Of a stretch of DNA of 18,644 bases, positions 1 to 17,400 are shown in pieces. The translations under genes were made by a program, and so were the position numbers. The notes below the pieces were generated by a model. That model was not told the DNA's origin, ran no database searches, and worked only from the letters and a program-made list of their open reading frames with translations. How positions within the stretch are numbered: the stretch's first letter is position 1; each line of letters opens with the position of its first letter. This DNA comes from a virus (taxonomy: Duplodnaviria > Heunggongvirae > Uroviricota > Caudoviricetes), in the IMG/VR virus record IMGVR_UViG_2627853678_000002, positions 1 to 18,644 of that record; one strand, given 5' to 3'.

Positions 1-2
1 CG

Positions 3-320
3 ATGTTATTCAGCGATCTGTTCAAATGTTATTACCCGATCTCGAGGAAGTTATTGAGTGATCTCCATTTCATGAAAATACGCACCAGTGACAGCTTTCA
101 GTTTATTCTCCACGAGAAAAAGAGAGCGGAAAGCGGTAAAAACGCCGGTCAGGAGTGGCTGGCGGTGGTTGGTTATTACCCGAAATTAAGCCAGCTCGTT
201 TCCGGCCTGATGCATCACGATATTCTGACCGGAAGCGCAAAGTCTTTTGCTGATTTAAACGCGCAGGTTGAGCAACTCAGCAAGCGTTGTTCAGAGGCTT
301 TTGGCTCATATGGCCGTTAA
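3..320 (+). CDS. hypothetical protein upstream of the replication gene (position of P2 orf80-83); true start uncertain
   Basis: 105-codon ORF ending 11 nt into gene A; no motif recognised; product not identified. Confidence 0.3.
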   Translation: MLFSDLFKCYYPISRKLLSDLHFMKIRTSDSFQFILHEKKRAESGKNAGQEWLAVVGYYPKLSQLVSGLMHHDILTGSAKSFADLNAQVEQLSKRCSEAFGSYGR

Positions 321-2580
321 AGCCTCCGGGCGTTTTGTCCCTCCGTCAGCATTTGCCGCAGGCACCGGTAAGGCGTTTACCGGTGCTTATGCATGGAACG
401 CGCCACGCGAGGCTGTCGGGCGCGAAAGACCCCTTACACGTGACGAGATGCGTCAGGTGCAAGGTGTTTTATCCACGATTAACCGCCTGCCTTACTTTTT
501 GCGCTCGCTGTTTACTTCACGCTATGACTACATCCGGCGCAATAAAAGCCCGGTGCACGGGTTTTATTTTCTCACATCCACTTTTCAGCGTCGTTTATGG
601 CCGCGCATTGAGCGTGTGAATCAGCGCCATGAAATGAACACCGACGCGTCGTTACTGTTTCTGGCAGAGCGTGACCACTATGCGCGCCTGCCGGGAATGA
701 ATGACAAGGAGCTGAAAAAATTTGCCGCCCGTATCTCATCGCAGCTTTTCATGATGTATGAGGAACTCAGCGATGCCTGGGTGGATGCGCATGGCGAGAA
801 AGAATCGCTGTTTACGGATGAGGCGCAGGCTCACCTGTATGGTCATGTTGCTGGCGCTGCACGAGCTTTCAATATTTCCCCTCTCTACTGGAAAAAATAC
901 CGTAAAGGGCAGATGACCACGAGGCAGGCATATTCTGCCATTGCCCGTCTGTTTAACGATGAGTGGTGGACTCATCAGCTCAAAGGCCAGCGTATGCGCT
1001 GGCATGAAGCGTTACTGATAGCTGTCGGGGAGGTCAATAAAGACCGTTCTCCTTATGCCAGTAAACACGCCATTCGTGATGTGCGTGCGCGTCGCCAGGC
1101 AAATCTGGAATTTCTTAAATCGTGTGACCTTGAAAACAGGGAAACCGGCGAGCGCATCGACCTTATCAGTAAGGTGATGGGCAGTATTTCTAATCCTGAA
1201 ATTCGCCGGATGGAGCTGATGAACACCATTGCCGGTATTGAGCGTTACGCCGCCGCAGAGGGTGATGTGGGGATGTTTATCACGCTGACCGCGCCGTCAA
1301 AGTATCACCCGACACGTCAGGTCAGAAAAGGCGAAAGTAAAACCGTTCAGCTTAATCACGGCTGGAACGATGAGGCATTTAATCCAAAGGATGCGCAGCG
1401 TTATCTCTGCCGCATCTGGAGCCTGATGCGCACGGCATTCAAGGATAATGATTTACAGGTCTACGGTTTGCGTGTCGTCGAGCCACACCACGACGGAACG
1501 CCGCACTGGCATATGATGCTTTTTTGTAATCCACGCCAGCGTAACCAGATTATCGAAATCATGCGTCGCTACGCGCTCAAAGAGGATGGAGACGAAAGAG
1601 GAGCTGCGCGAAACCGTTTTCAGGCAAAACACCTTAACCGGGGCGGTGCTGCGGGATATATCGCGAAATACATTTCAAAAAACATCGACGGCTATGCACT
1701 GGATGGTCAGCTCGATAACGACACCGGCAGGCCGCTGAAAGACACTGCAGCGGCTGTTACCGCATGGGCGTCAACGTGGCGCATCCCGCAATTTAAAACG
1801 GTTGGCCTGCCGACAATGGGGGCTTACCGTGAACTACGCAAATTGCCGCGCGGCGTCAGCATTGCTGATGAGTTTGACGAGCGCGTCGAGGCTGCACGCG
1901 CCGCCGCAGACAGTGGTGATTTTGCGTTGTATATCAGCGCGCAGGGCGGGGCAAATGTCCCGCGCGATTGTCAGACTGTCAGGGTCGCCCGTAGCCCGTC
2001 GGATGACGTTAACGAATACGAGGAAGAGGTCGAGAGAGTGGTCGGCATTTACGCGCCGCATCTCGGCGCGCGTCATATTCATATCACCAGAACGACGGAC
2101 TGGCGCATTGTGCCGAAAGTTCCGGTCGTTGAGCCTTTGACTTTAAAAAGCGGCATCGCCGCGCCTCGGAGTCCTGTCAATAACTGTGGAAAGCTCACCG
2201 GTGGTGATACTTCGTTACCGGCTCCCACACCTTCTGAACATGCCGCAGCCGTGCTTAATCTGGTTGATGACGGTGTTATCGGATGGAATGAGCCAGAGGT
2301 CGTGAGGGCGCTCAGAGGTGCATTAAAACACGGACTGAGAACACCAAATCGTCAGCAAAGAAGCGGAAGCCCGTTAAAACCGCATGAAATAGCGCCATCG
2401 GCCAGACTGACCCGGTCGGAACGAATGCAAATTACCCGTATCCGCGTTGACCTTGCTCAGAACGGTATCAGGCCGCAGCGATGGGAGCTTGAGGCGCTGG
2501 CGCGTGGGGCAACTGTAAATTACGACGGGAGAAGCTTCAGTTATCCTGTTATATGTGATTGGAGAGCGTATGAATTATGA
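310..2580 (+). CDS. A: rolling-circle replication initiation endonuclease gpA (HUH family)
   Basis: Long ORF whose translation from MAVKASGRFVPP matches the remembered P2 gpA N-terminus; contains HUH-like HWHMMLF and the tyrosine motif GYIAKYISKNIDGY. Start placed at ATG 310 rather than the ORF-track start 268. Confidence 0.9.
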   Translation: MAVKASGRFVPPSAFAAGTGKAFTGAYAWNAPREAVGRERPLTRDEMRQVQGVLSTINRLPYFLRSLFTSRYDYIRRNKSPVHGFYFLTSTFQRRLWPRIERVNQRHEMNTDASLLFLAERDHYARLPGMNDKELKKFAARISSQLFMMYEELSDAWVDAHGEKESLFTDEAQAHLYGHVAGAARAFNISPLYWKKYRKGQMTTRQAYSAIARLFNDEWWTHQLKGQRMRWHEALLIAVGEVNKDRSPYASKHAIRDVRARRQANLEFLKSCDLENRETGERIDLISKVMGSISNPEIRRMELMNTIAGIERYAAAEGDVGMFITLTAPSKYHPTRQVRKGESKTVQLNHGWNDEAFNPKDAQRYLCRIWSLMRTAFKDNDLQVYGLRVVEPHHDGTPHWHMMLFCNPRQRNQIIEIMRRYALKEDGDERGAARNRFQAKHLNRGGAAGYIAKYISKNIDGYALDGQLDNDTGRPLKDTAAAVTAWASTWRIPQFKTVGLPTMGAYRELRKLPRGVSIADEFDERVEAARAAADSGDFALYISAQGGANVPRDCQTVRVARSPSDDVNEYEEEVERVVGIYAPHLGARHIHITRTTDWRIVPKVPVVEPLTLKSGIAAPRSPVNNCGKLTGGDTSLPAPTPSEHAAAVLNLVDDGVIGWNEPEVVRALRGALKHGLRTPNRQQRSGSPLKPHEIAPSARLTRSERMQITRIRVDLAQNGIRPQRWELEALARGATVNYDGRSFSYPVICDWRAYEL

Positions 2581-2635
2581 GATTGTGATAAAAAGTAAAT
2601 AATTAATATAATGCAATTGCTTGACTGTTTTAAAA

Positions 2636-2666
2636 GGGACAACGTAGTTGTGAACTATATTGTCCC
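2636..2666. terminator. possible bidirectional hairpin between the convergent 3' ends of gene A and the 351-aa gene
   Basis: Inverted repeat GGGACAA (2636-2642) / TTGTCCC (2660-2666) in AT-rich DNA; on the minus strand it is followed by TTTTAAAA. Stem is short and the loop long, so support is weak. Confidence 0.3.
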
Positions 2667-2673
2667 GGGAGTA

Positions 2674-3729
2674 TTAATTTTTAAATATGGATTGTATGTA
2701 TTCTATAGTGCTATCTTTAGCTCTGATGTCTTTTAAAGTGTTATTTATGAAATCTATTATTCTGTCATTACTTAATAGTGGCGATAACGCATAACATGTT
2801 GTTGTGAATGTCATGACGTCACTAAAGCTTAGTGAAACACCTTTTGTCGCAGCGTTCTCAATCGCAAGAGACTCATCAATATCTAAGTTTGTTGCTCTTG
2901 GCCCTTTAAGGAAGATAACTTTTGAAATCCCGGATGCAGATGCTTTTGAAACGGCGTGATTAACATCTTGATAATTAAATGGTTTGTCTTTCACTTCTAT
3001 AGAAAGGAAAACTATATCATCATGATATACATCTATGTCCAGTATCTCTTTTGAGGAGCTACCGGCCTGATTGACGGGATGTGCTTTTATTATCCATCCT
3101 CTTTGTTCACCTAATAAATGTAACGAAATTGCGGCAGCAATCGCGCATGTTTCTCCATCACAAGGATGAGATATAATATTATAAATAATCTTATGGAAAT
3201 CAAAATTAATTGAGTTCGGCGTTATAACTCTATTGGTTCGCTGTAGGGTAAAATATAATGCAATAACAAGCATTTCATAAGCTAAGGTTTGGGTTGTTGC
3301 TGCATGTAATATATCAATTGAAAGTTGTTGTAAAACCTTATCATTTCCTCTGCGCACAGGGTTATCAGAGGAGTGGAGCATGTAACGAGCTGGTTTATTT
3401 AGAAATGGCTCATTTGATGCGCCTAACTTACCCTCTAAAAATGGGCCTTCTACTTTGCCTACTATTACCGAATGACATAAACTTCTTGCATCATAGGCTC
3501 CGTCTACGGGGGCATTAGCTTGTAAAGCCAGAGGGTTTACTCTAGGGTCTGTTGCTTTTGCAAGTAAACCAGTAATAAGTATATATCTGTATGTAAGGTG
3601 GGTGCCTAAAATTACATTTTGAATGGAGACCCATTGATTATTTGTTTTGTAATCAGTTAATTTTTTTGCATCGTTGATTGCATTTATAATTACATTATAG
3701 GCTTGCTCATGATTTACTAATACTTTCAT
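2674..3729 (-). CDS. uncharacterised 351-aa protein; putative PD-(D/E)xK-type nuclease, candidate restriction/defence effector
   Basis: 351-codon ORF in AT-rich DNA with AAGGA 7-11 nt upstream of the ATG; its start overlaps the 3' end of the upstream HTH gene by 23 nt. Candidate motif ILDIDVYHDD-IVFLSIEVK (D238...E245-x-K247, about nt 2989-3018). No Walker A motif seen. Confidence 0.5.
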   Translation of the reverse strand: MKVLVNHEQAYNVIINAINDAKKLTDYKTNNQWVSIQNVILGTHLTYRYILITGLLAKATDPRVNPLALQANAPVDGAYDARSLCHSVIVGKVEGPFLEGKLGASNEPFLNKPARYMLHSSDNPVRRGNDKVLQQLSIDILHAATTQTLAYEMLVIALYFTLQRTNRVITPNSINFDFHKIIYNIISHPCDGETCAIAAAISLHLLGEQRGWIIKAHPVNQAGSSSKEILDIDVYHDDIVFLSIEVKDKPFNYQDVNHAVSKASASGISKVIFLKGPRATNLDIDESLAIENAATKGVSLSFSDVMTFTTTCYALSPLLSNDRIIDFINNTLKDIRAKDSTIEYIQSIFKN

Positions 3730-4021
3730 AGGTGTCCTTTAGTAAGATATCCATTGGTAGACCTAATCGGCTTGCAACCACCTCTAATAATTCAAATAGT
3801 TCTAAAGCATCTAATCGCCTTTCAAAGCTTTCGATTTTAGATATATCTGATTGTGATAATCCTAGAAAAATGGCCAATTCTGACTGCGAAAGAGAAGCTT
3901 CTTTGCGTAGTTTGGTGAGAAGCTGGACTAGGCACCTGTATCTATGATCATGTATAGTTGGTTGTCGTTTTGCCATGTGGTTTAGAAGGTGATTGATTGT
4001 GTGTCGATCCTTACCTATCAT
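3707..4021 (-). CDS. small helix-turn-helix (XRE-like) transcriptional regulator; candidate controller (C) protein
   Basis: HTH-like segment ASLSQSELAIFLGLSQSDISKIE; sits directly upstream of and overlapping the 351-aa gene and divergent from the methyltransferase. Start ambiguous: ATG at 4021 (104 aa) or ATG at 3976 (89 aa); neither has a clear SD. Confidence 0.7.
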   Translation of the reverse strand: MIGKDRHTINHLLNHMAKRQPTIHDHRYRCLVQLLTKLRKEASLSQSELAIFLGLSQSDISKIESFERRLDALELFELLEVVASRLGLPMDILLKDTYESISKS

Positions 4022-5151
4022 TGGTTTTATTCCAAAATCGAATAATTGGTGCTAAAGAAGTGAACAAAATTTCAGCGGTGAGCTTATTTACTGGGGCAGG
4101 AGGGATGGATGTCGGTTTCTCTAATGCCGGGTTCCGAACAGTTTGGGCCAATGATATAGATAAGGATGCATGTGATACATTTAAGCTTAATCATGAATCA
4201 CCTGTTTTTTGTGGTGATATTGATGAGATGCTAAGTGAATTGTCTGGGCTGAAAAATATAGGTTGTGTTTTTGGTGGGCCTCCATGCCAAGGATTTTCTG
4301 TGGCAGGGAAAATGGACGCTCATGATCCACGTAGTAAGCTGGTTATGTCATTCATGCGGGCGGTGGATATAATTCAACCAGAATGCTTTGTTATGGAGAA
4401 TGTTAAGGCTTTAGCACAGTTGTCCAAATTTGAACCAGTTAGGTGTGAACTGTTTAAGATGGCTGAAAAGTCAGGCTATCGTTCAGCCTTGCTGGTGCTG
4501 AATTCTAAAGATTTTGGCGTTCCTCAGAATAGGGAACGTATGTTTTTTATAGGGTTTCGTTCCGAAAATGATGTGAAACGAGTTGAGGCAGCGATAAAAA
4601 AATACCAATATCTTTCGCCAACAGTTGGTGAGATTATTCGGCCTTTAGGGCGAGCGGGTAATCCAAACAATTCAAGAGTCTGTAATGCAAGGATTACAAA
4701 TGCTGCTAAGCCAGTATTACGGAAGTCACCTTACGCGGGAATGATGTTTAACGGGCAGGGAAGACCAATTAACCCGAATGGGTATGCTTCAACTATAGCT
4801 GCTTCTATGGGGGGGAATAGGACACCAATTATTGATGAAGAACACCTTTATGATGGCTCAACAAGTTATGTTGAGACTTATCATAATCATCTAATGAATG
4901 GTGGTGAGCCAAAAGATATGCACGATGTACCTAGTCGTTTACGTCGACTAACGATAGATGAGGCTCTTTTGATTCAAACATTCCCGAGTAATTATGTCTT
5001 TGTGGGGAAAAATTCGTCAATTTGGCGTCAGATAGGGAATGCTGTGCCTTGTAAATTGGCGCAGGCTGTTGCTGCAGGGGTTTTGGATGTCCTTACTGGT
5101 AAAACTATTAATGTTCAAAAGAGTCAAACAGAGTTGAGTTTGAATTCGTAA
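3997..5151 (+). CDS. DNA (cytosine-5)-methyltransferase
   Basis: Canonical C5-MTase motifs in order: I LFTGAGGMDVGF, IV GGPPCQGFS (Cys codon at 4285-4287), VI FVMENV, VIII QNRERMFFIGF, then a variable region and X RQIGNAVP. The 3997 start is TTG preceded by AGAAGGTGA; an in-frame GTG at 4060 is an alternative. Confidence 0.9.
   Translation: MCVDPYLSLVLFQNRIIGAKEVNKISAVSLFTGAGGMDVGFSNAGFRTVWANDIDKDACDTFKLNHESPVFCGDIDEMLSELSGLKNIGCVFGGPPCQGFSVAGKMDAHDPRSKLVMSFMRAVDIIQPECFVMENVKALAQLSKFEPVRCELFKMAEKSGYRSALLVLNSKDFGVPQNRERMFFIGFRSENDVKRVEAAIKKYQYLSPTVGEIIRPLGRAGNPNNSRVCNARITNAAKPVLRKSPYAGMMFNGQGRPINPNGYASTIAASMGGNRTPIIDEEHLYDGSTSYVETYHNHLMNGGEPKDMHDVPSRLRRLTIDEALLIQTFPSNYVFVGKNSSIWRQIGNAVPCKLAQAVAAGVLDVLTGKTINVQKSQTELSLNS
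4027..4045. promoter_or_regulatory. palindromic operator-like element in the divergent control region
   Basis: Perfect inverted repeat TTATTC-N7-GAATAA, read directly from the sequence, between or overlapping the 5' ends of the HTH gene and the methyltransferase gene. Confidence 0.3.
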
Positions 5152-5307
5152 AACGGATCACATTTTCAAACCGATGGATGCAGAATTTAACATTGCTGCA
5201 TGAGTTTGCATCTTGAAATCATAAGCTGTACTGCTTGGCTTGACCAGAATTGATGTGGGTAAGAAGTGGTTATGCACCCGCATTAAAACCGCCCCATTAA
5301 GCGGGCG

Positions 5308-5326
5308 GGCGAGGCGGGGAAAGCAC
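5308..5326. other. cos: cos site (19-nt cohesive-end sequence of P2-type phages)
   Basis: GGCGAGGCGGGGAAAGCAC matches my recollection of the P2 cohesive end and lies where expected, between the right-end cargo and the 3' end of Q. Confidence 0.6.
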
Positions 5327-5468
5327 TGCGCGCTGGCGGTGGTGCTGATTTTATTTTTTCAGCGTCTGAGCGCGTCGTGAAGGCGTTTACTTGGCCTGCC
5401 AGGGCGTCGGTGTGTCTGCGGGCTGTTTTGCGCGGTGGTGAGCGTGTGAGGGCGTGATGGCAGGTTGT

Positions 5469-5490
5469 AAAAAAGCCGCCCGCAGGCGGC
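5469..5490 (-). terminator. rho-independent terminator downstream of the portal gene
   Basis: On the minus strand, GC-rich hairpin GCCGCC-TGCG-GGCGGC followed by TTTTTT, immediately after the Q stop at 5496. Confidence 0.55.
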
Positions 5491-5495
5491 GATGT

Positions 5496-6529
5496 TCAGT
5501 CGTTGTCAGTGTCCAGTGAGTAGTTTTTAAAGCGGATGACCTCCTGACCGAGCCAGCCGTTTATTTCCCGAATCCTGTCCTGTAACGGGATTAGCTCATT
5601 GCGGACAAAGACCTTTGCCACTTTCTCAATATCGCCCAGTGACCCGACGTTCTCCGGCTTGCCACCCATCAACTGAAAGGGGATGCGGTGTGCGTCCAGC
5701 AGGTCAGCGGCGCTGGCTTTTTTGATATTAAAAAAATCGTCCTTCGTCGCCACTTCACTGAGCGGGATAATTTTAATGCCGTCGGCTTTCCCCTGCGGGG
5801 CATAGAGAAACAGGTTTTTAAAGTTGTTGCGGCCTTTTGACTTCACCATGTTTTCGCGAAGCATTTCGATATCGTTGCGATCCTGCACGGCATCGGTAAC
5901 GTACATGATGTATCCGGCATGTGCGCCGTTTTCGTAATACTTGCGGCGGAACAGCGTGGCCGACTCATTCAGCCAGGCAGAGTTAAGGGCGCTGAGATAT
6001 TCCGGCAGACCGTACAGCTCCTGATTAATATCCGGCTCCAGCAGGTGAAACACGGAGCCGGGCGCGAAAGGTGTCGGCTCGTTAAAGGACGGCACCCACC
6101 AGTAAACATCCTCTTCCACACCACGGCGGGTATATTTTGCCGGTGAGGTTTCCAGCCTGATAACTTTACCGGTGGTGCTGTAACGCTTTTCCAGAAACGC
6201 ATTACCGAACACCAGAAAATCCAGCACAAAGCGGCTGAAATCCTGCTGAGAAAGCCACGGATGCGGGATAAATGTCGAGGCCAGAATATTGCGTTTAACG
6301 TAAATCGGCGAGCTGTGATGCACGGCAGCACGCAGGCTTTTTGCCAGACCGGTAAAGCTGACCGGCGGCTCATACCATCTGCCGTTACTGATGCACTCGA
6401 CGTAATCCAGAATGTCACGGCGGTCGAGTACCGGCACCGGCTCACCAAAGGTGAATGCTCCATTTTCGGGGCGCTGGCGGTCATTGTTTTTGCCACAGGT
6501 TGCGGTGTTTTCCCTTTTTTCTTGCTCAT
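5496..6529 (-). CDS. Q: portal protein gpQ, interrupted by an apparent 1-nt frameshift near 6457-6460
   Basis: Two minus-strand ORFs in different frames (5969..6529 starting MSKKKGKTPQ, and 5496..6437) together span 344 codons, the length of P2 gpQ. The first starts in a TGATG overlap with the terminase stop. Frame switches between ...APKME and AFTFGEPVPVLDRR. Confidence 0.8.
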
Positions 6530-8301
6530 CAGTAAAACTCCAGAATGGTGGATGTCAGCGGGGTGCTGATACCGGCGGTGAGTGGCTCATTTAACAGGGC
6601 GTGCATGGTCGCCCAGGCGAGGTCGGCGTGGCTGGCTTCCTCGCTGCGGCTGGCCTCATAGGTGGCGCTGCGTCCGCTGCTGGTCATGGTCTTGCGGATA
6701 GCCATAAACGAGCTGGTGATGTCGGTGGCGCTGACGTCGTATTCCAGACAGCCACGGCGGATAACGTCTTTTGCCTTGAGCACCATTGCGGTTTTCATTT
6801 CCGGCGTGTAGCGGATGTCGCGCGCGGCAGGATAGAACGAGCGCACGAGCTGGAACACGCCGACACCGAGGCCGGTGGCATCAATACCGATGTATTCGAC
6901 GTTGTATTTTTCGGTGAGTTTGCGGATGGATTCCGCCTGGGTGGCAAAGTCCATGCCTTTCCACTGGTGACGCTCAAGTATTCTGAATTTGCCACCGGCA
7001 ACCACCGGCGGTGCCAGTACCACGCATCCGGCGCTGTCGCCACGGTGTGACGGGTCGTAACCAATCCAGACCGGGCGTGAGCCGAACGGATTGGCGGCAA
7101 ACGGCGCATAGTCTTCCCATTCTTCCAGCGTGTCGACCATGCAGCGTTGCAACTCCTCGAACGGGAACACCGACGCCTTGTCGTCAACAAATTCACACAT
7201 GAACAGGTTTTTAAAATCGTCGGCGCTGTTTTCGCGTTTGAGCTGCTCAATGTCGAACAGCGTGCAGCCGCCTTTCAGGGCGTCCTCAATGGTGACAATC
7301 TGCCGCCACTGGCCGTCCGCACAGAGAAGACCTCCGGCAAGTGCGTTATGACTGACGTCGATTTCCACGCGTTCAGCGGCGCTGGCGCGTCCCCGGTTAA
7401 ACAGTTCACCCGACCAGAACGGGTAGGCGTCGTGCGCCAGCGTGGACGGGGTGGAGAAATAGGTCGAACGCAGGTGACTCTGTGAGGCCATACCTGATGC
7501 CACCTTACGCAGTACCTGAAAATTCGGGATCCAGAAAATCTCATCGACGTACAGGTCGCCGTTATGGCTCTGCGCGGTGTTGGAGTTGGTGCCGAGAAAA
7601 ATCAGTTTTGCGCCGTTATTGCCCAGGACAATCGGGTCACCGGTCAGGTCAACGTCAACCAGACGGGCAAAGGCGATGATGTATTCGCGGAACACATACG
7701 CCTGCGTTTTACTGGCCGACAGAAAAATCTGGTTATGGCCGGTTTTCAGGGCGCGCAGCAGCGCCTCGCGGGAAAAATAAAACGTTGCGCCAATCTGGCG
7801 GGATTTCAGGATATCGCGGATGCGGTGCTCAAGCCCGGCGCGATACCAGTGCAACTGATATTCGAAAGACTGCTCAAAGAAAATCTGCTCCAGCTTTTCG
7901 ATGGCTTCGTCGCTGAAAAAATTCTTTTTCGGTTTGCGGCGCCCGCCTTTGTTGCGGTTAGCGACGTTCGGATTAAGGTCTGCCTCGTTGCCGGTCTGAC
8001 TGTAGCGGTTGACCCGCGCCAGCCGTTCAATCTGGCGTCCCAGCAGGTCAATTTCCTTGAAGTCACCGCCGGTTTTCTGCGGTTTGATGATGAGCTGGGT
8101 CAGCCGCGCTTCCAGACTCATTTCGACACGGCTGATGGGGGCAACGCTGTCCCAGCCGTCGCGCTGTTTCCAGCTCTGCACCGTCGGGCGTTTCATCTGC
8201 AACATGGCGGCAATCTGCGGCACGGAAAACCCCTGCCAGTACAGCAGCGCCGCCTGACGACGCGGGTCGTGTAAAAGAGTGGTGTCTGTGGTGATGGTCA
8301 T
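6529..8301 (-). CDS. P: terminase large (ATPase) subunit gpP
   Basis: 600-codon ORF; ATG at 8301 with GAGG upstream gives 590 aa (MTITTDTTLL...), the size of P2 gpP; it is followed directly by the portal gene as in P2. Confidence 0.9.
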   Translation of the reverse strand: MTITTDTTLLHDPRRQAALLYWQGFSVPQIAAMLQMKRPTVQSWKQRDGWDSVAPISRVEMSLEARLTQLIIKPQKTGGDFKEIDLLGRQIERLARVNRYSQTGNEADLNPNVANRNKGGRRKPKKNFFSDEAIEKLEQIFFEQSFEYQLHWYRAGLEHRIRDILKSRQIGATFYFSREALLRALKTGHNQIFLSASKTQAYVFREYIIAFARLVDVDLTGDPIVLGNNGAKLIFLGTNSNTAQSHNGDLYVDEIFWIPNFQVLRKVASGMASQSHLRSTYFSTPSTLAHDAYPFWSGELFNRGRASAAERVEIDVSHNALAGGLLCADGQWRQIVTIEDALKGGCTLFDIEQLKRENSADDFKNLFMCEFVDDKASVFPFEELQRCMVDTLEEWEDYAPFAANPFGSRPVWIGYDPSHRGDSAGCVVLAPPVVAGGKFRILERHQWKGMDFATQAESIRKLTEKYNVEYIGIDATGLGVGVFQLVRSFYPAARDIRYTPEMKTAMVLKAKDVIRRGCLEYDVSATDITSSFMAIRKTMTSSGRSATYEASRSEEASHADLAWATMHALLNEPLTAGISTPLTSTILEFY

Positions 8302-8474
8302 GAATACCTCGCCGTGATGAATACACGGCAAGGCTACTGAGTCGCGCCCCGCGATTCGCTAAGGTGCTGTTGTGTCAGTGATAAGCCATCCGGGACTGAT
8401 GGCGGAGGATGCGTATCGTCGGGAAACTGATGCCGACATGTGACTCCTCTAATCACTATTCAGGACTCCTGACA
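8302..8474. promoter_or_regulatory. divergent control region between P/Q (minus) and the O-N-M-L operon (plus); presumed late promoters
   Basis: 173-bp non-coding gap between divergent starts; contains dyad GTGA-N9-TCAC at about 8440-8456. No exact TGT-N12-ACA element was found, so promoter positions are not assigned. Confidence 0.3.
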
Positions 8475-9329
8475 ATGGCAAAAAAAGTCTCAAAATTCTT
8501 TCGTATCGGCGTTGAGGGTGACACCTGTGACGGGCGTGTCATCAGTGCGCAGGATATTCAGGAAATGGCCGAAACCTTTGACCCGCGTGTCTATGGTTGC
8601 CGCATTAACCTGGAACATCTGCGCGGCATCCTGCCTGACGGTATTTTTAAACGTTATGGCGATGTGGCAGAACTGAAGGCCGAAAAGATTGACGATGATT
8701 CGGCGCTGAAAGGCAAATGGGCGCTGTTTGCGAAAATCACCCCGACCGATGACCTTATCGCGATGAACAAGGCCGCGCAGAAGGTCTACACCTCAATGGA
8801 AATTCAGCCGAACTTTGCCAACACCGGCAAATGTTATCTGGTGGGGCTGGCCGTCACCGATGACCCGGCAAGCCTCGGTACGGAATACCTGGAATTCTGC
8901 CGCACGGCAAAACACAACCCTCTGAACCGCTTCAAATTAAGCCCTGAAAACCTGATTTCAGTGGCAACGCCCGTTGAGCTGGAATTTGAAGACCTGCCTG
9001 AAACCGTGTTCACCGCCCTGACCGAAAAGGTGAAATCCATTTTTGGCCGCAAACAGGCCAGCGATGACGCCCGTCTGAATGACGTGCATGAAGCGGTGAC
9101 CGCTGTTGCTGAACATGTGCAGGAAAAACTGAGCGCCACTGAGCAGCGCCTCGCTGAGATGGAAACTGCCTTTTCCGCTCTTAAGCAGGAGGTGACTGAC
9201 AGGGCGGATGAAACCAGCCAGGCATTCAGCCGCCTGAAAAACAGTCTCGACAACACCGAAAGTCTGACCCAGCAGCGCCGCAGCAAGGCCACCGGCGGTG
9301 GCGGTGACGCCCTGATGACGAACTGCTGA
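8475..9329 (+). CDS. O: capsid scaffolding protein gpO
   Basis: Translation from MAKKVSKFFRIGVEGDTCDGR is 284 aa and matches the remembered P2 gpO; AGGA lies 9-12 nt upstream of ATG 8475. The ORF-track start at 8409 is judged a spurious upstream extension. Confidence 0.9.
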   Translation: MAKKVSKFFRIGVEGDTCDGRVISAQDIQEMAETFDPRVYGCRINLEHLRGILPDGIFKRYGDVAELKAEKIDDDSALKGKWALFAKITPTDDLIAMNKAAQKVYTSMEIQPNFANTGKCYLVGLAVTDDPASLGTEYLEFCRTAKHNPLNRFKLSPENLISVATPVELEFEDLPETVFTALTEKVKSIFGRKQASDDARLNDVHEAVTAVAEHVQEKLSATEQRLAEMETAFSALKQEVTDRADETSQAFSRLKNSLDNTESLTQQRRSKATGGGGDALMTNC

Positions 9330-9387
9330 CCGGCGTCAGCCAGTCCGGGAAAACCTTCACGATTAACCCTTAATTTCAGGAAAAACT

Positions 9388-10460
9388 ATGCGCCAGGAAA
9401 CCCGCTTTAAATTTAATGCCTACCTGTCCCGTGTTGCCGAACTGAACGGCATCGACGCCGGTGATGTGTCGAAAAAATTCACCGTTGAACCGTCGGTCAC
9501 CCAGACCCTGATGAACACCATGCAGGAGTCCTCTGACTTTCTGACCCGCATCAACATTGTGCCGGTCAGCGAAATGAAAGGGGAAAAAATTGGTATTGGT
9601 GTCACCGGCTCCATCGCCAGCACCACCGACACCGCCGGTGGCACCGAGCGTCAGCCGAAGGACTTCTCGAAGCTGGCGTCCAGTAAGTACGAATGCGACC
9701 AGATTAACTTCGATTTTTATATCCGCTACAAAACGCTGGACCTGTGGGCGCGTTATCAGGATTTCCAGCTCCGTATCCGTAACGCCATTATCAAACGCCA
9801 GTCCCTTGATTTCATCATGGCCGGTTTTAACGGCGTGAAGCGTGCCGAAACCTCTGACCGCAACAGCAATCCGATGTTGCAGGATGTGGCGGTCGGCTGG
9901 CTGCAGAAATACCGCAATGAAGCCCCGGCGCGCGTGATGAGCAAGGTCACTGACGAGGAAGGCCGCACCACCTCTGAGGTTATCCGCGTGGGTAAGGGCG
10001 GTGATTATGCCAGCTTGATGCACTGGTGATGGATGCGACCAACAACCTGATTGAGCCGTGGTATCAGGAAGACCCTGACCTTGTGGTGATTGTGGGGCGT
10101 CAGTTACTGGCGGACAAGTATTTCCCCATCGTTAACAAGGAGCAGGACAACAGCGAAATGCTGGCCGCTGACGTCATCATCAGCCAGAAACGCATCGGTA
10201 ACCTGCCGGCGGTACGCGTCCCGTACTTCCCGGCGGATGCGATGCTCATCACGAAGCTGGAAAACCTGTCCATCTACTACATGGATGACAGTCATCGCCG
10301 CGTGATTGAGGAAAACCCGAAACTTGACCGCGTGGAGAACTACGAGTCAATGAACATTGATTACGTGGTGGAAGACTACGCCGCCGGTTGTCTGGTGGAA
10401 AAAATTAAGGTCGGTGATTTCTCCACACTGGCTAAAGCGACCGCAGAGCCGGGAGCGTAA
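9388..10460 (+). CDS. N: major capsid protein gpN, interrupted by an apparent 1-nt frameshift near 10015-10019
   Basis: ORFs 9388..10029 (MRQETRFKFNAYLSRV...GGDYASL) and 10026..10460 (MDATNNLIEPWYQ...AEPGA) are adjacent frames of one capsid gene; the second frame reads LDALVMDATNN upstream of its listed start. Confidence 0.85.
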
Positions 10461-10463
10461 CCG

Positions 10464-11207
10464 ATGACGAGTCCCGCACAGCGCCACATGATGCGGGTCT
10501 CGGCAGCGATGACCGCGCAGCGGGAAGCCGCCCCGCTGCGACATGCAACTGTCTATGAGCAGATGCTGGTTAAGCTCGCCGCAGACCAGCGCACACTGAA
10601 AGCGATTTATTCAAAAGAGCTGAAGGCCGCGAAAAAACGCGAACTGCTGCCGTTCTGGTTGCCGTGGGTGAACGGCGTGCTGGAGCAGGGCAAAGGTGCA
10701 CAGGATGACATTCTGATGACGGTCATGCTGTGGCGTCTGGATACCGGCGATATTGCCGGTGCGCTGGAGATTGCCCGTTACGCCCTGAAGTACGGCCTGA
10801 CCATGCCGGGTAAACACCGCCGCACCCCGCCGTACATGTTCACCGAGGAGGTGGCGCTCGCGGCCATGCGCGCTCACGCTGCCGGTGAGTCTGTGGATCC
10901 CCGCCTGCTGACGGACACCCTCGAACTGACCGCCACGGCTGACATGCCTGATGAAGTGCGCGCAAAGCTGCACAAAATCACCGGTCTGTTTCTGCGTGAC
11001 GCTGGTGATGCCGCAGGTGCGCTGGCGCACCTGCAACGTGCGACACAGCTCGACTGTCAGGCAGGCGTCAAAAAAGAGATTGAACGACTGGAGCGGGAGC
11101 TGAAACCGAAGCCGGAGCCGCAGCCCAAAGCGGCCACCCGCGCCCCGCGTAAGACCCGGAGCGTGACACCGGCAAAACGTGGACGCCCGAAAAAGAAAGC
11201 CAGTTAA
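10464..11207 (+). CDS. M: terminase small subunit gpM
   Basis: 247-aa ORF in the gpM position and size; basic Lys/Pro-rich C-terminal tail. Confidence 0.85.
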   Translation: MTSPAQRHMMRVSAAMTAQREAAPLRHATVYEQMLVKLAADQRTLKAIYSKELKAAKKRELLPFWLPWVNGVLEQGKGAQDDILMTVMLWRLDTGDIAGALEIARYALKYGLTMPGKHRRTPPYMFTEEVALAAMRAHAAGESVDPRLLTDTLELTATADMPDEVRAKLHKITGLFLRDAGDAAGALAHLQRATQLDCQAGVKKEIERLERELKPKPEPQPKAATRAPRKTRSVTPAKRGRPKKKAS

Positions 11208-11306
11208 CAACCGAATGCGCCCCGCGCCAGGGCGGCACGCCGGTCAGTGAGGGTGAATCACCTGACGCTGTACCGGCGTCCACCGCCCGACTTTTCAGAG
11301 GTAGTC

Positions 11307-11816
11307 ATGATGACGCTGATTATTCCGCGAAAGGAGGCTCCCGTGTCCGGTGAGGGTACGGTGGTCATCCCGCAACCGGCAGGCGACGAGCCGGTGATTA
11401 AAAACACGTTCTTTTTTCCCGATATCGACCCGAAGCGCGTCCGGGAACGTATGCGACTTGAGCAGACCGTCGCCCCCGCCCGTCTGCGTGAGGCCATCAA
11501 GTCAGGCATGGCGGAGACGAATGCGGAGCTGTACGAGTACCGCGAACAGAAAATTGCTGCCGGTTTTACGCGTCTGGCGGACGTTCCGGCGGACGACATC
11601 GACGGTGAAAGTATCAAAGTTTTTTACTACGAGCGCGCCGTGTGTGCGATGGCGACCGCGTCGCTTTATGAGCGTTATCGCGGCGTGGATGCCAGTGCGA
11701 AAGGGGACAAGAAGGCCGACAGCATTGACAGCACCATTGATGAGTTGTGGCGGGATATGCGCTGGGCAGTGGCGCGCATCCAGGACAAGCCGCGCTGCAT
11801 CGTGAGTCAAATCTGA
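11307..11816 (+). CDS. L: head completion/stabilisation protein gpL
   Basis: Start at ATG 11307 (MMTLIIPRKEAP, GAGG upstream) gives 169 aa as in P2 gpL; the stop overlaps the X start. Confidence 0.8.
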   Translation: MMTLIIPRKEAPVSGEGTVVIPQPAGDEPVIKNTFFFPDIDPKRVRERMRLEQTVAPARLREAIKSGMAETNAELYEYREQKIAAGFTRLADVPADDIDGESIKVFYYERAVCAMATASLYERYRGVDASAKGDKKADSIDSTIDELWRDMRWAVARIQDKPRCIVSQI

Positions 11817-12019
11817 TGAAGACCTTTGCGCTACAGGGCGACACGCTCGACGCCATTTGTGTCCGGTATTACGGGCGCACTGAGGGCGTGGTCGAGGCCG
11901 TGCTCGCCGCAAATCCGGGACTGGCTGAACTGGGTGCGGTGCTGCCGCACGGCACCGCCGTCGAACTGCCCGACGTTCAGACCGCGCCCGTGGCTGAAAC
12001 TGTCAATCTGTGGGAGTAA
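11816..12019 (+). CDS. X: tail protein X
   Basis: 67-aa product from ATG 11816 (MKTFALQGDTLDAICVRYYG...), the size and position of P2 gpX. Confidence 0.75.
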   Translation: MKTFALQGDTLDAICVRYYGRTEGVVEAVLAANPGLAELGAVLPHGTAVELPDVQTAPVAETVNLWE

Positions 12020-12022
12020 CGC

Positions 12023-12304
12023 ATGACAGCAGAAGAAAAAAGCGTCCTGTCGCTTTTCATGATTGGGGTGCTGATTGTTGTCGGCAAGGTGCTTGCCGGT
12101 GGTGAATCCATCACCCCGCGTCTGTTTATCGGGCGCATGTTACTCGGTGGTTTTGTCTCGATGGTTGCCGGTGTTGTTCTGGTGCAGTTTCCTGACCTGT
12201 CACTGCCTGCGGTGTGCGGCATCGGCTCCATGCTGGGTATCGCCGGTTATCAGGTGATTGAGATTGCCATTCAGCGCCGCTTTAAGGGCAGGGGGAAACC
12301 GTAA
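12023..12304 (+). CDS. Y: holin gpY
   Basis: 93-aa protein with hydrophobic transmembrane segments and a charged C-terminus (RRFKGRGKP); first gene of the lysis cassette. Confidence 0.8.
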   Translation: MTAEEKSVLSLFMIGVLIVVGKVLAGGESITPRLFIGRMLLGGFVSMVAGVVLVQFPDLSLPAVCGIGSMLGIAGYQVIEIAIQRRFKGRGKP

Positions 12305-12801
12305 TGCCGGTTATTAACACGCATCAGAATATCGCCGCCTTTCTCGACATGCTGGCCGTGTCCGAAGGGACGGCAAACCATCCGCTGACGAAAAACCGGG
12401 GCTATGACGTGATAGTCACCGGACTGGACGGGAAGCCGGAAATTTTCACCGACTACAGTGACCACCCGTTCGCACATGGCCGACCGGCGAAGGTGTTTAA
12501 CCGTCGCGGTGAAAAATCCACGGCCTCCGGTCGCTATCAGCAGCTTTACCTGTTCTGGCCGCATTACCGCAAACAGCTTGCCCTGCCGGATTTCAGTCCG
12601 TTGTCACAGGACAGACTTGCCATTCAGTTGATCCGCGAACGCGGTGCACTGGATGACATCCGGGCGGGACGCATTGAGCGCGCCATTTCACGCTGTCGCA
12701 ATATCTGGGCGTCCCTGCCGGGTGCCGGTTACGGTCAGCGTGAGCATTCACTGGAAAAACTGGTCACCGTCTGGCGTACCGCTGGCGGCGTACCGGCTTA
12801 A
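12304..12801 (+). CDS. K: endolysin gpK
   Basis: 165-aa ORF starting in a TAATG overlap with the Y stop; position and length match P2 gpK. Confidence 0.85.
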   Translation: MPVINTHQNIAAFLDMLAVSEGTANHPLTKNRGYDVIVTGLDGKPEIFTDYSDHPFAHGRPAKVFNRRGEKSTASGRYQQLYLFWPHYRKQLALPDFSPLSQDRLAIQLIRERGALDDIRAGRIERAISRCRNIWASLPGAGYGQREHSLEKLVTVWRTAGGVPA

Positions 12802-12815
12802 ACGGAGTAAACACC

Positions 12816-13241
12816 ATGAAGAAATTATCCCTTTCACTGATGCTGAACGTGTCGCTGGCGCTGATGCTGGCACTGTCCCTGATTTACCCGCAGAGCGTGG
12901 CCGTCAGTTTTGTCGCTGTCTGGGCGATTCTGGCGACGGTTATCTGTGTGGTTGCCGGTGGTGTCGGCGTGTATGCCACAGAGTATGTACTGGAACGCTA
13001 CGGGCGGGAGCTGCCGCCGGAATCGCTGGCCGTGAAGATTGTCGCATCGCTGTTTTTGCAGCCGGTGCCGTGGCGCAGACGGGCAGTGGCTCTGGTGGTG
13101 ATGGTGACGACGTTTATCTCGCTGGTCGCTGCCGGGTGGATTTTTACCGCGCTGATTTATCTCGTGGCGTCGCTGTTCTTCCGGCTGATACGTACGGCCT
13201 GCCGTCAGCGTTTTGAGGGGCGGGAACCATGTCAAAGCTGA
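12816..13241 (+). CDS. lysA: lysis accessory membrane protein LysA
   Basis: 141-aa strongly hydrophobic protein following K, as in P2. Confidence 0.7.
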   Translation: MKKLSLSLMLNVSLALMLALSLIYPQSVAVSFVAVWAILATVICVVAGGVGVYATEYVLERYGRELPPESLAVKIVASLFLQPVPWRRRAVALVVMVTTFISLVAAGWIFTALIYLVASLFFRLIRTACRQRFEGREPCQS

Positions 13242-13654
13242 TGACTGTGCTGGTCGTGTTGTTATCGCTGGCGGTGGCGGGGCTGTTTCTGGCGAAGCAT
13301 GAAAACGCCAGCCTGCGCGCCTCGCTGGACAGGGCGAACAACGTCGCCAGTGAACAGCAGACGACCATCACCATGCTGAAAAACCAGCTTCATGTTGCAC
13401 TCACCAGGGCAGATAAAAACGAGCTGGCGCAGGTGGCACTGCGTCAGGAACTGGAAAACGCCGCGAAGCGTGAAGCACAGCGCGAGAAAACCATCACGAG
13501 GTTACTTAATGAAAACGAAGATTTTCGCCGCTGGTACGGTGCTGACCTGCCTGATGCTGTGCGCCGGTTGCACCAGCGCCCGGCCTGCGCCGACGCCAGT
13601 GATTGTCCACAACGCCTGCCCGAAAGTGAGTCTTTGCCCGATGCCGGGCAGTGA
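13229..13654 (+). CDS. lysB: LysB, Rz-like inner-membrane spanin
   Basis: 141 aa with an N-terminal transmembrane segment and a coiled-coil-like periplasmic region. Confidence 0.75.
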   Translation: MSKLMTVLVVLLSLAVAGLFLAKHENASLRASLDRANNVASEQQTTITMLKNQLHVALTRADKNELAQVALRQELENAAKREAQREKTITRLLNENEDFRRWYGADLPDAVRRLHQRPACADASDCPQRLPESESLPDAGQ

Positions 13655-13799
13655 CCCGGAGACGAACGGCGATTTAAGTGCCGATATCCGGCAGCTTGAG
13701 AACGCGCTGGCACGCTGTGCCAGCCAGGTAAAAATGATTAAACACTGTCAGGATGAAAACTATGCTCAAACCCGACAGCCTGCGCAGGGCGCTGACTGA
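13509..13799 (+). CDS. lysC: LysC, Rz1-like outer-membrane lipoprotein spanin, nested in the +1 frame of lysB
   Basis: 96-aa product from ATG 13509 with signal peptide and lipobox LMLCAGC; embedded in and extending past lysB. Confidence 0.7.
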   Translation: MKTKIFAAGTVLTCLMLCAGCTSARPAPTPVIVHNACPKVSLCPMPGSDPETNGDLSADIRQLENALARCASQVKMIKHCQDENYAQTRQPAQGAD

Positions 13800-14229
13800 T
13801 GCCGTCACGGTGCTGAAAACCAGTCCCGAGATGCTGCGGATATTCGTGGATAACGGGAGTATTGCCTCCACACTGGCGACGTCGTTGTCATTCGAAAAGC
13901 GTTACACGCTCAATGTCATTGTGACCGACTTTACCGGTGATTTTGACCTGCTCATTGTGCCGGTGCTGGCGTGGCTGCGGGAAAATCAGCCCGACATCAT
14001 GACCACCGACGCAGGCCAGAAAAAGGGCTTCACATTTTATGCAGACATCAACAATGACAGCAGCTTTGATATCAGTATCAGCCTGATGCTGACCGAGCGC
14101 ACGCTGGTCAGTGAGGTGGACGGCGCGCTGCATGTGAAGAATATCCCGGAACCTCCGCCGCCGGAGCCGGTCACCCGCCCGATGGAGCTGTATATCAATG
14201 GCGAACTGGTGAGCAAGTGGGATGAATGA
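13762..14229 (+). CDS. R: tail completion protein gpR
   Basis: 155 aa from ATG 13762 (MLKPDSLRRALTDAV...); an in-frame ATG at 13753 is an alternative start. Confidence 0.8.
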   Translation: MLKPDSLRRALTDAVTVLKTSPEMLRIFVDNGSIASTLATSLSFEKRYTLNVIVTDFTGDFDLLIVPVLAWLRENQPDIMTTDAGQKKGFTFYADINNDSSFDISISLMLTERTLVSEVDGALHVKNIPEPPPPEPVTRPMELYINGELVSKWDE

Positions 14230-14680
14230 GTTTAAGCGTTTTGAAGACCGGCTGACCGGACTGATTGAATCGCTGTCACCGTCAGGGCGTCGGCGACTGG
14301 CGGTAGATATTGCGAAGAAGCTGCGCCAGCGCCAGCAGCAGCGAATTAAATTACAAAAAGCCCCGGATGGTACGCCGTATGTACCGAGAAAAAACCAACC
14401 AGTACGAAATAAGAAAGGCCGGATAAAGCGGGAAATGTTTGTGAAATTACGCACTAACCGGTTTATGAAAGCAACAGGTAGCGAGAGTGCGGCGGTGGTG
14501 GCGTTTGCCAGCGGAGTACAACGAATTGCGCGAGTACATCAATTAGGGCTTAGGGATAAGCCGGGGCGTAATAGTGCTGTGGTGGAATATCCTGTTCGCG
14601 AGTTATTTGGTTTTGACAAGGAATCTATACAATTGATAGAAAGGGAGTTATTAGTGATTCTATCGAAAGATGTTATATGA
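14222..14680 (+). CDS. S: tail completion protein gpS (3' third is more AT-rich, possibly mosaic)
   Basis: 152 aa beginning MNEFKRFEDRLTGLIESLSP in the gpS position; its stop overlaps the next start in ATGA. Confidence 0.8.
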   Translation: MNEFKRFEDRLTGLIESLSPSGRRRLAVDIAKKLRQRQQQRIKLQKAPDGTPYVPRKNQPVRNKKGRIKREMFVKLRTNRFMKATGSESAAVVAFASGVQRIARVHQLGLRDKPGRNSAVVEYPVRELFGFDKESIQLIERELLVILSKDVI

Positions 14681-14973
14681 GACGGGTGTTTGTGGATAAA
14701 AAGTTTTCCATTTTGAGAAAAAGAGTAAAGCATTCTCAAAAGAAAGTTATGGATTGTATTATTGCTGACCATAATGCTGATATATGTGTGTTATGCGGGA
14801 GTTCTGACGATATTACTCGTGAGCACATTATTCCTCAGTGGGCCTTTGAGTCAAATGCTGAAAAATCTTTAATTAATAAAAAGAATAATCAGTCAACTCA
14901 TTACATTAAAGCCACTGTACCAGCATGCAGAGTGTGCAATTCTGATTTGCTGGGAGTGTTTGAGTATACCTGA
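14677..14973 (+). CDS. small HNH-endonuclease-like protein (cargo in the S-V variable locus)
   Basis: 98-aa ORF in AT-rich DNA with an HNH/His-Me-finger-like pattern: CVLC ... REHIIPQW ... NKKNN ... H ... CRVCN. Confidence 0.6.
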   Translation: MRRVFVDKKFSILRKRVKHSQKKVMDCIIADHNADICVLCGSSDDITREHIIPQWAFESNAEKSLINKKNNQSTHYIKATVPACRVCNSDLLGVFEYT

Positions 14974-15041
14974 AGAAATTTCTTACGGAAAAGAGGGGAG
15001 AGGAGTTAACAGATTATGAGTATGATTGCATCATATGGTGG

Positions 15042-15431
15042 TTGCAATACATGGGTTTTAAGTTGCAATTAATGGATTTGCGGAACCGCTTTCTCAGGTA
15101 TAAAGGTGGTGATTATATCCCGTTCCTTGCAAACTTTCCGGTTGCAATGTTTTGGGGGAATGTCGATACGACGCCGGGGGATGTCTTCAGGATTATACGA
15201 AAATCGCGACGCAATCTGATGTCGAAATGGAAGGATAAAAAACATAATTCTTTGATGGTTTTTGAAACATCAAACAAGAGTTTTCATTTCTTTCATAAGG
15301 TTGATGAATTTATTTTTATTGAAATGCCTCAGGTTAAGAAGGCGTTTTTCTTCTTTTTTAATAAAGAATTTGACAGCCATGATTTAGCTCATGAGGAGTG
15401 TATGAAGATTATAGAGAAGTGCTACAACTAA
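15042..15431 (+). CDS. hypothetical protein (cargo in the S-V variable locus)
   Basis: 129-codon ORF in AT-rich DNA, where an open frame of this length is unlikely by chance; the listed start is TTG and ATG at 15051 (GGTGG upstream) is more likely. No motif recognised. Confidence 0.5.
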   Translation: MQYMGFKLQLMDLRNRFLRYKGGDYIPFLANFPVAMFWGNVDTTPGDVFRIIRKSRRNLMSKWKDKKHNSLMVFETSNKSFHFFHKVDEFIFIEMPQVKKAFFFFFNKEFDSHDLAHEECMKIIEKCYN

Positions 15432-15508
15432 TATTTATTATGTTGTATCACAGCTGACAGAATCCTCCATGATTGCTGCTGGTATCGTCCAGCGGCATCC
15501 TTCCCGTT

Positions 15509-16143
15509 ATGAACACTCTCGCAAATATTCAGGAACTCGCGCGCGCACTGCGCAATATGATTCGCACCGGCATTATCGTCGAAACCGACCTTAACGCCGG
15601 TCGCTGCCGTGTGCAGACCGGCGGCATGTGCACCGACTGGTTGCAGTGGCTGACTCATCGTGCTGGGCGTTCGCGCACATGGTGGGCACCTTCCGTGGGG
15701 GAACAGGTGCTGATTCTGTCCGTGGGCGGCGAACTCGACACGGCGTTTGTTCTGCCGGGGATTTATTCCGGCGATAACCCTGCGCCGTCTGCGTCGGCGG
15801 ATGCCCTGCATATCCGTTTCCCTGACGGGGCGGTGATTGAGTATGAACCCGAAACCAGTGCACTCACGGTAAGCGGAATTAAAACGGCCAGCGTGACGGC
15901 TTCTGATTCTGTTACTGCCACGGTGCCGGTGGTCATGGTGAAAGCATCAACCGCGTCACTCTGGACACGCCGGAGGTGGTCTGCACAAACAGGCTGATCA
16001 CCGGCACGCTGGAAGTGCAGAAGGGCGGGACGATGCGCGGCAACATTGAACACACCGGCGGTGAACTCTCATCAAACGGGAAGGTACTGCATACCCATAA
16101 ACACCCCGGCGACAGCGGCGGCACAACCGGGAGTCCTCTATGA
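15509..16143 (+). CDS. V: baseplate assembly/spike protein gpV, interrupted by an apparent 1-nt frameshift near 15951-15953
   Basis: Translation from ATG 15509 (MNTLANIQELARALRNMIRTG...) matches the remembered P2 gpV; the frame terminates at 15997, while the adjacent frame continues RVTLDTPEVVCTNRLITGTLEVQKGG...GSPL to a stop overlapping the W start. Confidence 0.8.
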
Positions 16144-16487
16144 CAGCGCGTTATCTCGGAATGAATCGCAGTGATGGCCTGACTGTCTCTGACCTTGAGC
16201 ATATCAGCCAGAGTATCGGCGATATCCTGCGCACGCCGGTCGGCTCACGGGTGATGCGTCGTGATTACGGCTCGTTGCTGGCGTCAATGATTGACCAACC
16301 GCAGACCCCGGCGCTTGAGTTGCAGATTAAGGTCGCCTGTTACATGGCGGTGCTGAAATGGGAACCCCGCGTCACCCTGTCATCCGTCACTACGGCGCGC
16401 AGTTTTGACGGGCGAATGACGGTCACGTTAACCGGCCAGCACAACGACACCGGCCAGCCACTTTCGTTAACCATCCCTGTGAGTTGA
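16140..16487 (+). CDS. W: baseplate wedge protein gpW
   Basis: 115-aa ORF in the gpW position and size. Confidence 0.85.
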   Translation: MTARYLGMNRSDGLTVSDLEHISQSIGDILRTPVGSRVMRRDYGSLLASMIDQPQTPALELQIKVACYMAVLKWEPRVTLSSVTTARSFDGRMTVTLTGQHNDTGQPLSLTIPVS

Positions 16488-16491
16488 AACC

Positions 16492-17400
16492 ATGCCGATT
16501 ATCGACCTGAACCAGCTACCCGCACCGGATGTGGTCGAGGAGCTGGACTTTGAAACCATTCTCGCTGAACGCAAGGCGACACTGATTTCCCTTTACCCGG
16601 AAGACCAGCAGGAGGCGGTCGCCCGTACCCTGACGCTGGAATCCGAGCCTCTCGTCAAACTGCTGGAGGAAAATGCTTATCGTGAGCTTATCTGGCGTCA
16701 GCGTGTGAATGAGGCCGCACGGGCGGTGATGCTGGCCTGTGCCGCCGGTAATGACCTTGATGTTATTGGTGCCAATTACAACACCACGCGCCTGATTATC
16801 ACCCCGGCAGATGATTCGACCATCCCGCCGACACCGGCAGTAATGGAATCTGACACGGATTATCGTCTGCGTATTCAGCAGGCGTTTGAAGGTTTAAGCG
16901 TCGCCGGGTCGGTGGGTGCCTATCAGTATCATGGCCGCAGTGCTGACGGGCGTGTCGCGGATATCTCTGTCACCAGTCCGTCTCCGGCCTGTGTCACCAT
17001 CTCTGTGCTGTCACGTGAAAATAACGGTGTCGCTTCCGAAGACTTGCTGGCGGTGGTGCGTAACGCCCTTAATGGCGAGGACGTCAGGCCGGTGGCCGAC
17101 CGCGTGACCGTGCAGTCTGCCGCCATTGTTGAATATCAGATAAACGCCACGCTTTACCTTTACCCTGGTCCCGAAAGCGAACCCATCCGCGCTGCTGCCG
17201 TGAAAAAACTGGAAGCGTATATCACGGCACAGCACCGGCTGGGGCGCGACATCCGTCTGTCTGCCATTTATGCCGCTTTGCATGTGGAGGGCGTGCAGCG
17301 TGTCGAGCTGGCCGCACCACTGGCCGACATCGTGCTCAACAGTACGCAGGCGTCTTTCTGTACCGAATACCGCGTCGTGACCGGAGGCTCGGATGAGTGA
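16492..17400 (+). CDS. J: baseplate protein gpJ
   Basis: 302-aa ORF in the gpJ position and size. Confidence 0.85.
   Translation: MPIIDLNQLPAPDVVEELDFETILAERKATLISLYPEDQQEAVARTLTLESEPLVKLLEENAYRELIWRQRVNEAARAVMLACAAGNDLDVIGANYNTTRLIITPADDSTIPPTPAVMESDTDYRLRIQQAFEGLSVAGSVGAYQYHGRSADGRVADISVTSPSPACVTISVLSRENNGVASEDLLAVVRNALNGEDVRPVADRVTVQSAAIVEYQINATLYLYPGPESEPIRAAAVKKLEAYITAQHRLGRDIRLSAIYAALHVEGVQRVELAAPLADIVLNSTQASFCTEYRVVTGGSDE

Follow-up and report, generated by a model that had tools for sequence, protein, structure and literature searches.

The open reading frame (ORF) at positions 2674–3729 of the 18,644-nucleotide (nt) stretch of viral DNA analysed here (IMG/VR record IMGVR_UViG_2627853678_000002, positions 1 to 18,644; hereafter the window) in all probability encodes R.EcoT38I, the nuclease component of EcoT38I, a type II restriction-modification (R-M) system; we put the probability at about 97%. 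The ORF of 351 amino acids (aa) is real, occupies exactly this interval and is read from the minus strand, the plus-strand reading being ruled out by a translation full of stops. Its product was identical at 351 of 351 positions to the sequences 7E8R_A and 7EDB of the PDB, which bear the name “EcoT38I restriction endonuclease” (E = 4.2e-234). The match to the Pfam family RE_SacI (PF09566) covered profile positions 4–276 of 276 with E = 1.9e-76 and 258 bits, compared with a family cut-off (gathering threshold) of 19.3 bits, and the PADLOC model REase_II (PDLC03473) matched with 834 bits, covering 351 of 351 positions. The original prediction, in which the gene product resembled no restriction enzyme or defence family, is contradicted by these three matches, and the “undescribed effector” that it considered is a named and crystallised enzyme. 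Its other option, a new restriction enzyme acting as the partner of the methyltransferase, was right about the partnership and wrong about the novelty. Nor is this the largest cargo gene, as the adjoining methyltransferase ORF is longer (363–384 aa).

Among 5426 complete E. coli genomes, 20 contained the DNA of the 2.6-kb island that carries the gene, at an identity of 99% or above. In all 15 RefSeq records listed for these 20 genomes the gene is named “restriction endonuclease, SacI family”, and its two companions “helix-turn-helix domain-containing protein” and “DNA cytosine methyltransferase”; the one record that was inspected showed P2 genes around the cassette. The rare codons of E. coli R-M genes have been tabulated (PMC6456624), which allowed an independent check: the entry for the EcoT38I endonuclease has AUA as codon 15, and so has the present ORF. 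Nothing was found that contradicts the identification as R.EcoT38I. Some points limit how far it can be carried. NCBIfam has no family model for the protein. The EcoT38I site is given from REBASE and the literature as GRGCY^C, which includes the SacI site GAGCTC. The metal-ligating aspartate may be either D231 or D233. Finally, the surrounding prophage looks defective, so that the R-M system may or may not be expressed in the strain.

The PD-(D/E)xK core had originally been proposed from the stretch ILDIDVYHDDIVFLSIEVKDK, which is indeed present at residues 229–249, with D238, E245 and K247 correctly numbered. The E-x-K part of this reading was correct and no coincidental match, E245 and K247 being invariant, and the choice of D238 as the motif aspartate was not, this residue being located in a variable turn. 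The search for homologues returned 1419 sequences at E ≤ 0.001, all of the listed ones with PF09566, and 55 of them, 38–79% identical to the query, were aligned. The residues E193, D231, D233, E245, K247, D248 and K249 were invariant in this alignment. The AlphaFold2 model built from it had a mean predicted local distance difference test (pLDDT) value of 93.1 and a predicted template modelling score (pTM) of 0.85, and DSSP assigned strands to residues 232–236 and 239–247. E193 marked the start of the first core helix, D233 was on strand beta2, and E245, K247, D248 and K249 were on beta3. Residues 236–238 (“HDD”, with D237 and D238) fell in the beta2–beta3 hairpin turn, which varied in sequence and length, with insertions and deletions (indels) among the homologues. 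Because D231 and D233 are invariant and the 236–238 turn is variable, the aspartate that goes with the E-x-K is D233 (or D231) and not D238; for mutagenesis, the relevant residue is D233 or D231. The hallmarks of the PD-(D/E)XK fold were present, with an aspartate on beta2 (D233) and (D/E)-x-K on beta3 (E245-V-K247), as was the alpha-beta-beta-beta-alpha-beta core, in which helices flank a mixed sheet of four beta-strands. The SacI family had already been classed as PD-(D/E)XK (Orlowski & Bujnicki 2008, PMC2441816), and PF09566 was placed in group 13 of PD-(D/E)XK by Steczkiewicz et al. 2012 (PMC3424549).

Foldseek aligned the model to 7edb_A, the DNA complex, with a template modelling (TM) score of 0.86 and 100% identity. 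The whole-chain TM score against the apo entry 7e8r was lower, at 0.54. This poorer fit of the model to the apo form than to the DNA-bound form suggests a hinge between two domains, and a methods paper in which a predicted model was split into two domains aligned to 7e8r (PMC10478639) is consistent with such a hinge. Later entries among the fold comparisons were Can2, NucC, NgoMIV, HindIII, NucS and SgrAI. R.EcoT38I is composed of an N-terminal helical domain (approximately residues 1–190) and a C-terminal PD-(D/E)XK catalytic domain (approximately residues 193–304), and would bind its palindromic site as a dimer, with which the two protein chains bound to DNA in 7EDB fit. Both strands are most likely hydrolysed in a metal-dependent manner via E193, D233 (or D231), E245 and K247. 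The coordinates of the gene and of the features around it are collected in Table 1.

Table 1. Position, strand and supporting evidence of the EcoT38I genes, their putative control sequences and the island that holds them (window coordinates).
Feature	Position	Strand	Evidence or remark
ecoT38IR, type II endonuclease R.EcoT38I (351 aa)	2674..3729 (including stop codon)	-	ORF; 100% identity to PDB 7E8R/7EDB; Pfam RE_SacI; PADLOC REase_II; AlphaFold2 model
Catalytic-core motif ILDIDVYHDDIVFLSIEVKDK, residues 229-249	2983..3045	-	beta2 with D233, turn with D237/D238, beta3 with E245-V-K247
ecoT38IC, C (control) protein of 89 aa, HTH_3/Xre-type	3707..3976	-	Pfam HTH_3 E=1.8e-6; PADLOC Control_protein E=2e-4; RefSeq 270-nt version
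ecoT38IM, C5-cytosine DNA methyltransferase with GTG start (363 aa)	4060..5151	+	Pfam DNA_methylase E=1.3e-66; TIGR00675 dcm E=5.9e-59
Promoter-like site for M, TTGATT-17 nt-TATCAT	3993..4021	+	consensus scan, 9/12
Inverted repeat TTATTC-N7-GAATAA, TTATTCGATTTTGGAATAA	4027..4045		candidate C-protein operator (putative)
Low-GC cargo island replacing P2 orf91-tin-old	2550..5279		last P2-like position before the island 2549 (P2 30273), first one after it 5280 (P2 33547)
Cohesive-end (cos) sequence of P2 at the edge of the hotspot	5308..5326		5280-5326 = P2 33547-33593 (cosR); 5308 onward = P2 1 onward (cosL)

The endonuclease gene (R) is the last gene of an operon with the control gene (C), and the adjoining methyltransferase gene (M) is divergent. 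Two features of a C-controlled type II R-M system were present, an adjacent C5-methyltransferase and a small helix-turn-helix gene directly upstream of R; C is co-oriented with R, and its 3' end overlaps the R gene start by 23 nt. The C frame remained open upstream as far as an ATG at 4021, which would give a protein of 104 aa. This start was rejected, as the corresponding frame in the Enterobacter ludwigii homologue was shifted and met stops at once. The ATG at 4021 belongs to the conserved -10 sequence of the promoter-like site, and since it is out of frame in E. ludwigii, the C protein most likely starts at 3976. For M, both the ORF and the RefSeq annotation begin at TTG 3997 (384 aa). In the rare-codon table mentioned above (PMC6456624), the EcoT38I methyltransferase gene has GGG as its codons 12 and 15, and since these positions fit only a start at GTG 4060, the latter was retained and TTG 3997 rejected. 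The C and M starts are now placed more precisely than by automatic annotation.

The same M, C and R trio was found with R homologues 74% (Enterobacter ludwigii) and 65% (Pseudescherichia) identical to the window protein, there in ordinary chromosomal, non-phage settings. Its occurrence at unrelated chromosomal sites implies that the three genes move as one unit. In the window, M.EcoT38I would protect the host and prophage DNA, by C5 methylation at the GRGCY^C site. C.EcoT38I would be transcribed first, in an operon with R, and, as in other systems governed by a C protein, this would delay the expression of R until the DNA is methylated.

The alignment of the C/M intergenic segments of three cassettes, the other two with R proteins 65–74% identical to that of the window, showed that the 19-nt inverted repeat TTATTCGATTTTGGAATAA was identical in all of them. 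The flanking non-coding DNA was variable, with indels of 9–13 nt. The repeat and the adjacent TATCAT were found at positions 4016–4045 of the window, 7672–7706 of the E. ludwigii locus (L003) and 7675–7710 of the third locus (L004), and the distance from the repeat to the C start differed between cassettes (50–63 nt). Both the -10 sequence of the promoter-like site, ATGATA on the opposite strand, and the first three letters (TTG) of its -35 sequence were also invariant. The -10 of M ends 5 nt before the inverted repeat, which itself ends 15 nt before the M start codon. Given the promoter-like site just upstream, the repeat would cover the start of the predicted M transcript. We propose the repeat as a candidate operator of C.EcoT38I overlapping the M promoter, the promoter function of the 3993–4021 segment being itself predicted from the sequence. 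The conserved repeat thus gives the EcoT38I control protein a concrete candidate operator. C.EcoT38I is among the REBASE control proteins for which a conserved upstream motif has been described (PMC2632904), and none of the published C-box motif classes could be assigned to it from the text of that article. On the other side of the operon, just past the endonuclease stop, the minus strand shows the arms GGGACAA and TTGTCCC around a 17-nt loop, followed by TTTT (positions 2636–2666). Read by eye, this hairpin could terminate the C-R operon; it went unreported in the terminator scan, its loop being longer than the scan allows.

The window corresponds to a P2-like (Peduovirus) prophage. Positions 84–2549 matched P2 orf83/gpA, and the sequence from position 5280 matched P2 cosR/cosL, gpQ, gpP and the late genes. 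The island located in between has a guanine-plus-cytosine (GC) content of 38%, compared to 54% in the neighbouring gpA, and the matches to sequenced Peduovirus phages ended at positions 2546–2549. It occupies the cos-proximal gpA–gpQ (old/tin) defence hotspot of P2 as defined by Rousset et al. 2022 (PMC9122126). The phage records contained no DNA match for the island, and a tblastn search of the same records gave only two distant hits, with 35% identity, in Evtepia phages; the cassette is thus absent from the sequenced free phages of that collection. In place of old/tin, the cassette would restrict unmethylated incoming DNA, and it could also stabilise its carrier, by analogy with R-M cassettes in general.

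The state of the prophage was assessed by comparison with that of E. coli MS 124-1 (locus L001, 20.6 kb). The window is without approximately 1.8 kb from cox to orf82, so that cox, gpB and orf80–82 are removed. Window positions 1–84 correspond to positions 4604–4687 of L001, upstream of cox, and the sequence then jumps to orf83 (L001 position 6504 onward); the junction leaves a fusion ORF at positions 3–320. With this deletion the prophage looks defective. Four single-base deletions relative to MS 124-1 were located in short homopolymer runs (CC, CC, AA and CCC) and break the portal gene gpQ (near position 6458), the capsid gene gpN (near 10014), the cargo gene of a second hotspot (near 14968) and the baseplate gene gpV (near 15933). 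They reflect either real decay or assembly or sequencing errors. The second hotspot is itself a low-GC island (38% GC, positions 14447–15508), which replaces P2 orf30 between gpS and gpV. In the window its gene is split by the 1-nt deletion, with ORFs at 14677–14973 and 15042–15431, both on the plus strand. The MS 124-1 counterpart is a single hypothetical protein of 246 aa with a weak CxxC...H...CxxC HNH-like motif and weak matches to Pfam HNH_5 (E = 0.002) and PADLOC PDC-M01B (E = 0.003).

The cox-to-orf82 deletion and the four broken genes would fit another reading, in which the R gene, though intact, is not expressed or no longer works in this strain and is left over from a prophage in decay. 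We consider this improbable. The R-M island showed no indel and 100.0% identity to the MS 124-1 copy, all three cassette genes are open, and M is not readily lost from a cassette whose R gene is active; moreover, the four indels, all in short homopolymer runs, may be sequencing errors. Much less room is left for a SacI-family enzyme of different specificity, for example a strict GAGCTC cutter, which would be a new restriction enzyme. The prototype SacI recognises GAGCTC according to the Pfam description, and with members approximately 40% identical to the R protein the specificities within the family can differ, but the 100% identity to R.EcoT38I already refutes this reading, since it means that the specificity must be that of EcoT38I. 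The idea of an undescribed stand-alone defence effector lying next to a methyltransferase by chance, an impression that comes only from the missing NCBIfam match and the lack of a close relative in sequenced phage records, has practically nothing left to it: it is already refuted by the identity to a named, crystallised enzyme and is opposed by the strong Pfam and PADLOC restriction-enzyme matches and by the M-C-R trio travelling together into unrelated chromosomal sites. The identification of the ORF as R.EcoT38I is retained.

The distribution of the sequence GRGCYC was then compared between the prophage and its hosts. The whole window (positions 1–18644) contained none, versus 16.1 ± 4.0 expected, and GRGCYC had the strongest depletion among 32 comparable degenerate palindromes. 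The genome of phage P2 (33,593 nt), which has no EcoT38I genes, also contained none. The absence could not be retained as a prophage-specific signal, as a host control of 50 kb from the MS 124-1 chromosome (L006) was also poor in such sites, with 6 versus approximately 49 expected from the base composition. The depletion in the host control indicates that GRGCYC is avoided throughout E. coli, and only to a mildly greater degree in the prophage. No depletion was seen in the E. ludwigii locus (L003), with its homologous cassette (16 sites in 17 kb). In the MS 124-1 locus, an insertion sequence of the IS21 family, ISEc12, is located at L001 positions 2192–4494, between the repressor gene and cox, and holds the only two GRGCYC sites of the 20.6 kb.

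These observations could be brought together in a single scheme, in which the cassette would act as an addiction module keeping the decaying P2 prophage in the chromosome, the inverted repeat would represent a class of C-box at which the C protein represses M and activates C-R, and the strong depletion of GRGCYC in E. coli and P2 DNA would be a long-term footprint of systems of this kind. Taken jointly, this scheme appears rather unlikely to us. The R protein itself holds nothing new, and whatever novelty is open lies in the setting only. The enzyme and its crystal structure, the partner genes and the position on a P2 prophage are all already known; Kita, Kawakami and Tanaka (J Bacteriol 185:2296, 2003) reportedly found the EcoT38I genes on a P2 prophage, going by their title. 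As both enzyme and setting have been described before, the case is of low value for discovery, and the candidate can be dropped from the list of new effectors.

The closest known system is EcoT38I itself. The window protein shares every residue with R.EcoT38I, crystallised in the apo form (7E8R) and with DNA (7EDB), and no difference between the two proteins was detectable; the M start and the rare-codon positions of the partner genes also match. R.EcoT38I matches the SacI family model RE_SacI (PF09566) over its full length and has more than 1400 homologues in this family, of which typical members are only approximately 40% identical to it. BanII and HgiJII are isoschizomers of EcoT38I (GRGCY^C), and according to REBASE they share both its recognition and its cleavage pattern. 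SacI differs in that it cuts GAGCT^C only, compared with GRGCY^C for EcoT38I. FokI, R.BspD6I/N.BspD6I and LlaBIII also have PD-(D/E)XK cleavage domains, with 7–12% sequence identity to R.EcoT38I. These are type IIS/ISP enzymes with separate recognition modules, whereas EcoT38I is an orthodox palindrome cutter with an N-terminal helical domain of its own. In terms of location, the nearest parallel is the EcoO109I R-M system of P4-like satellites, which is also a type II system with a C protein and is also cos-adjacent in an element of the P2/P4 family. It is carried by the satellite and not by the helper phage, and its enzyme family and specificity differ from those of EcoT38I.
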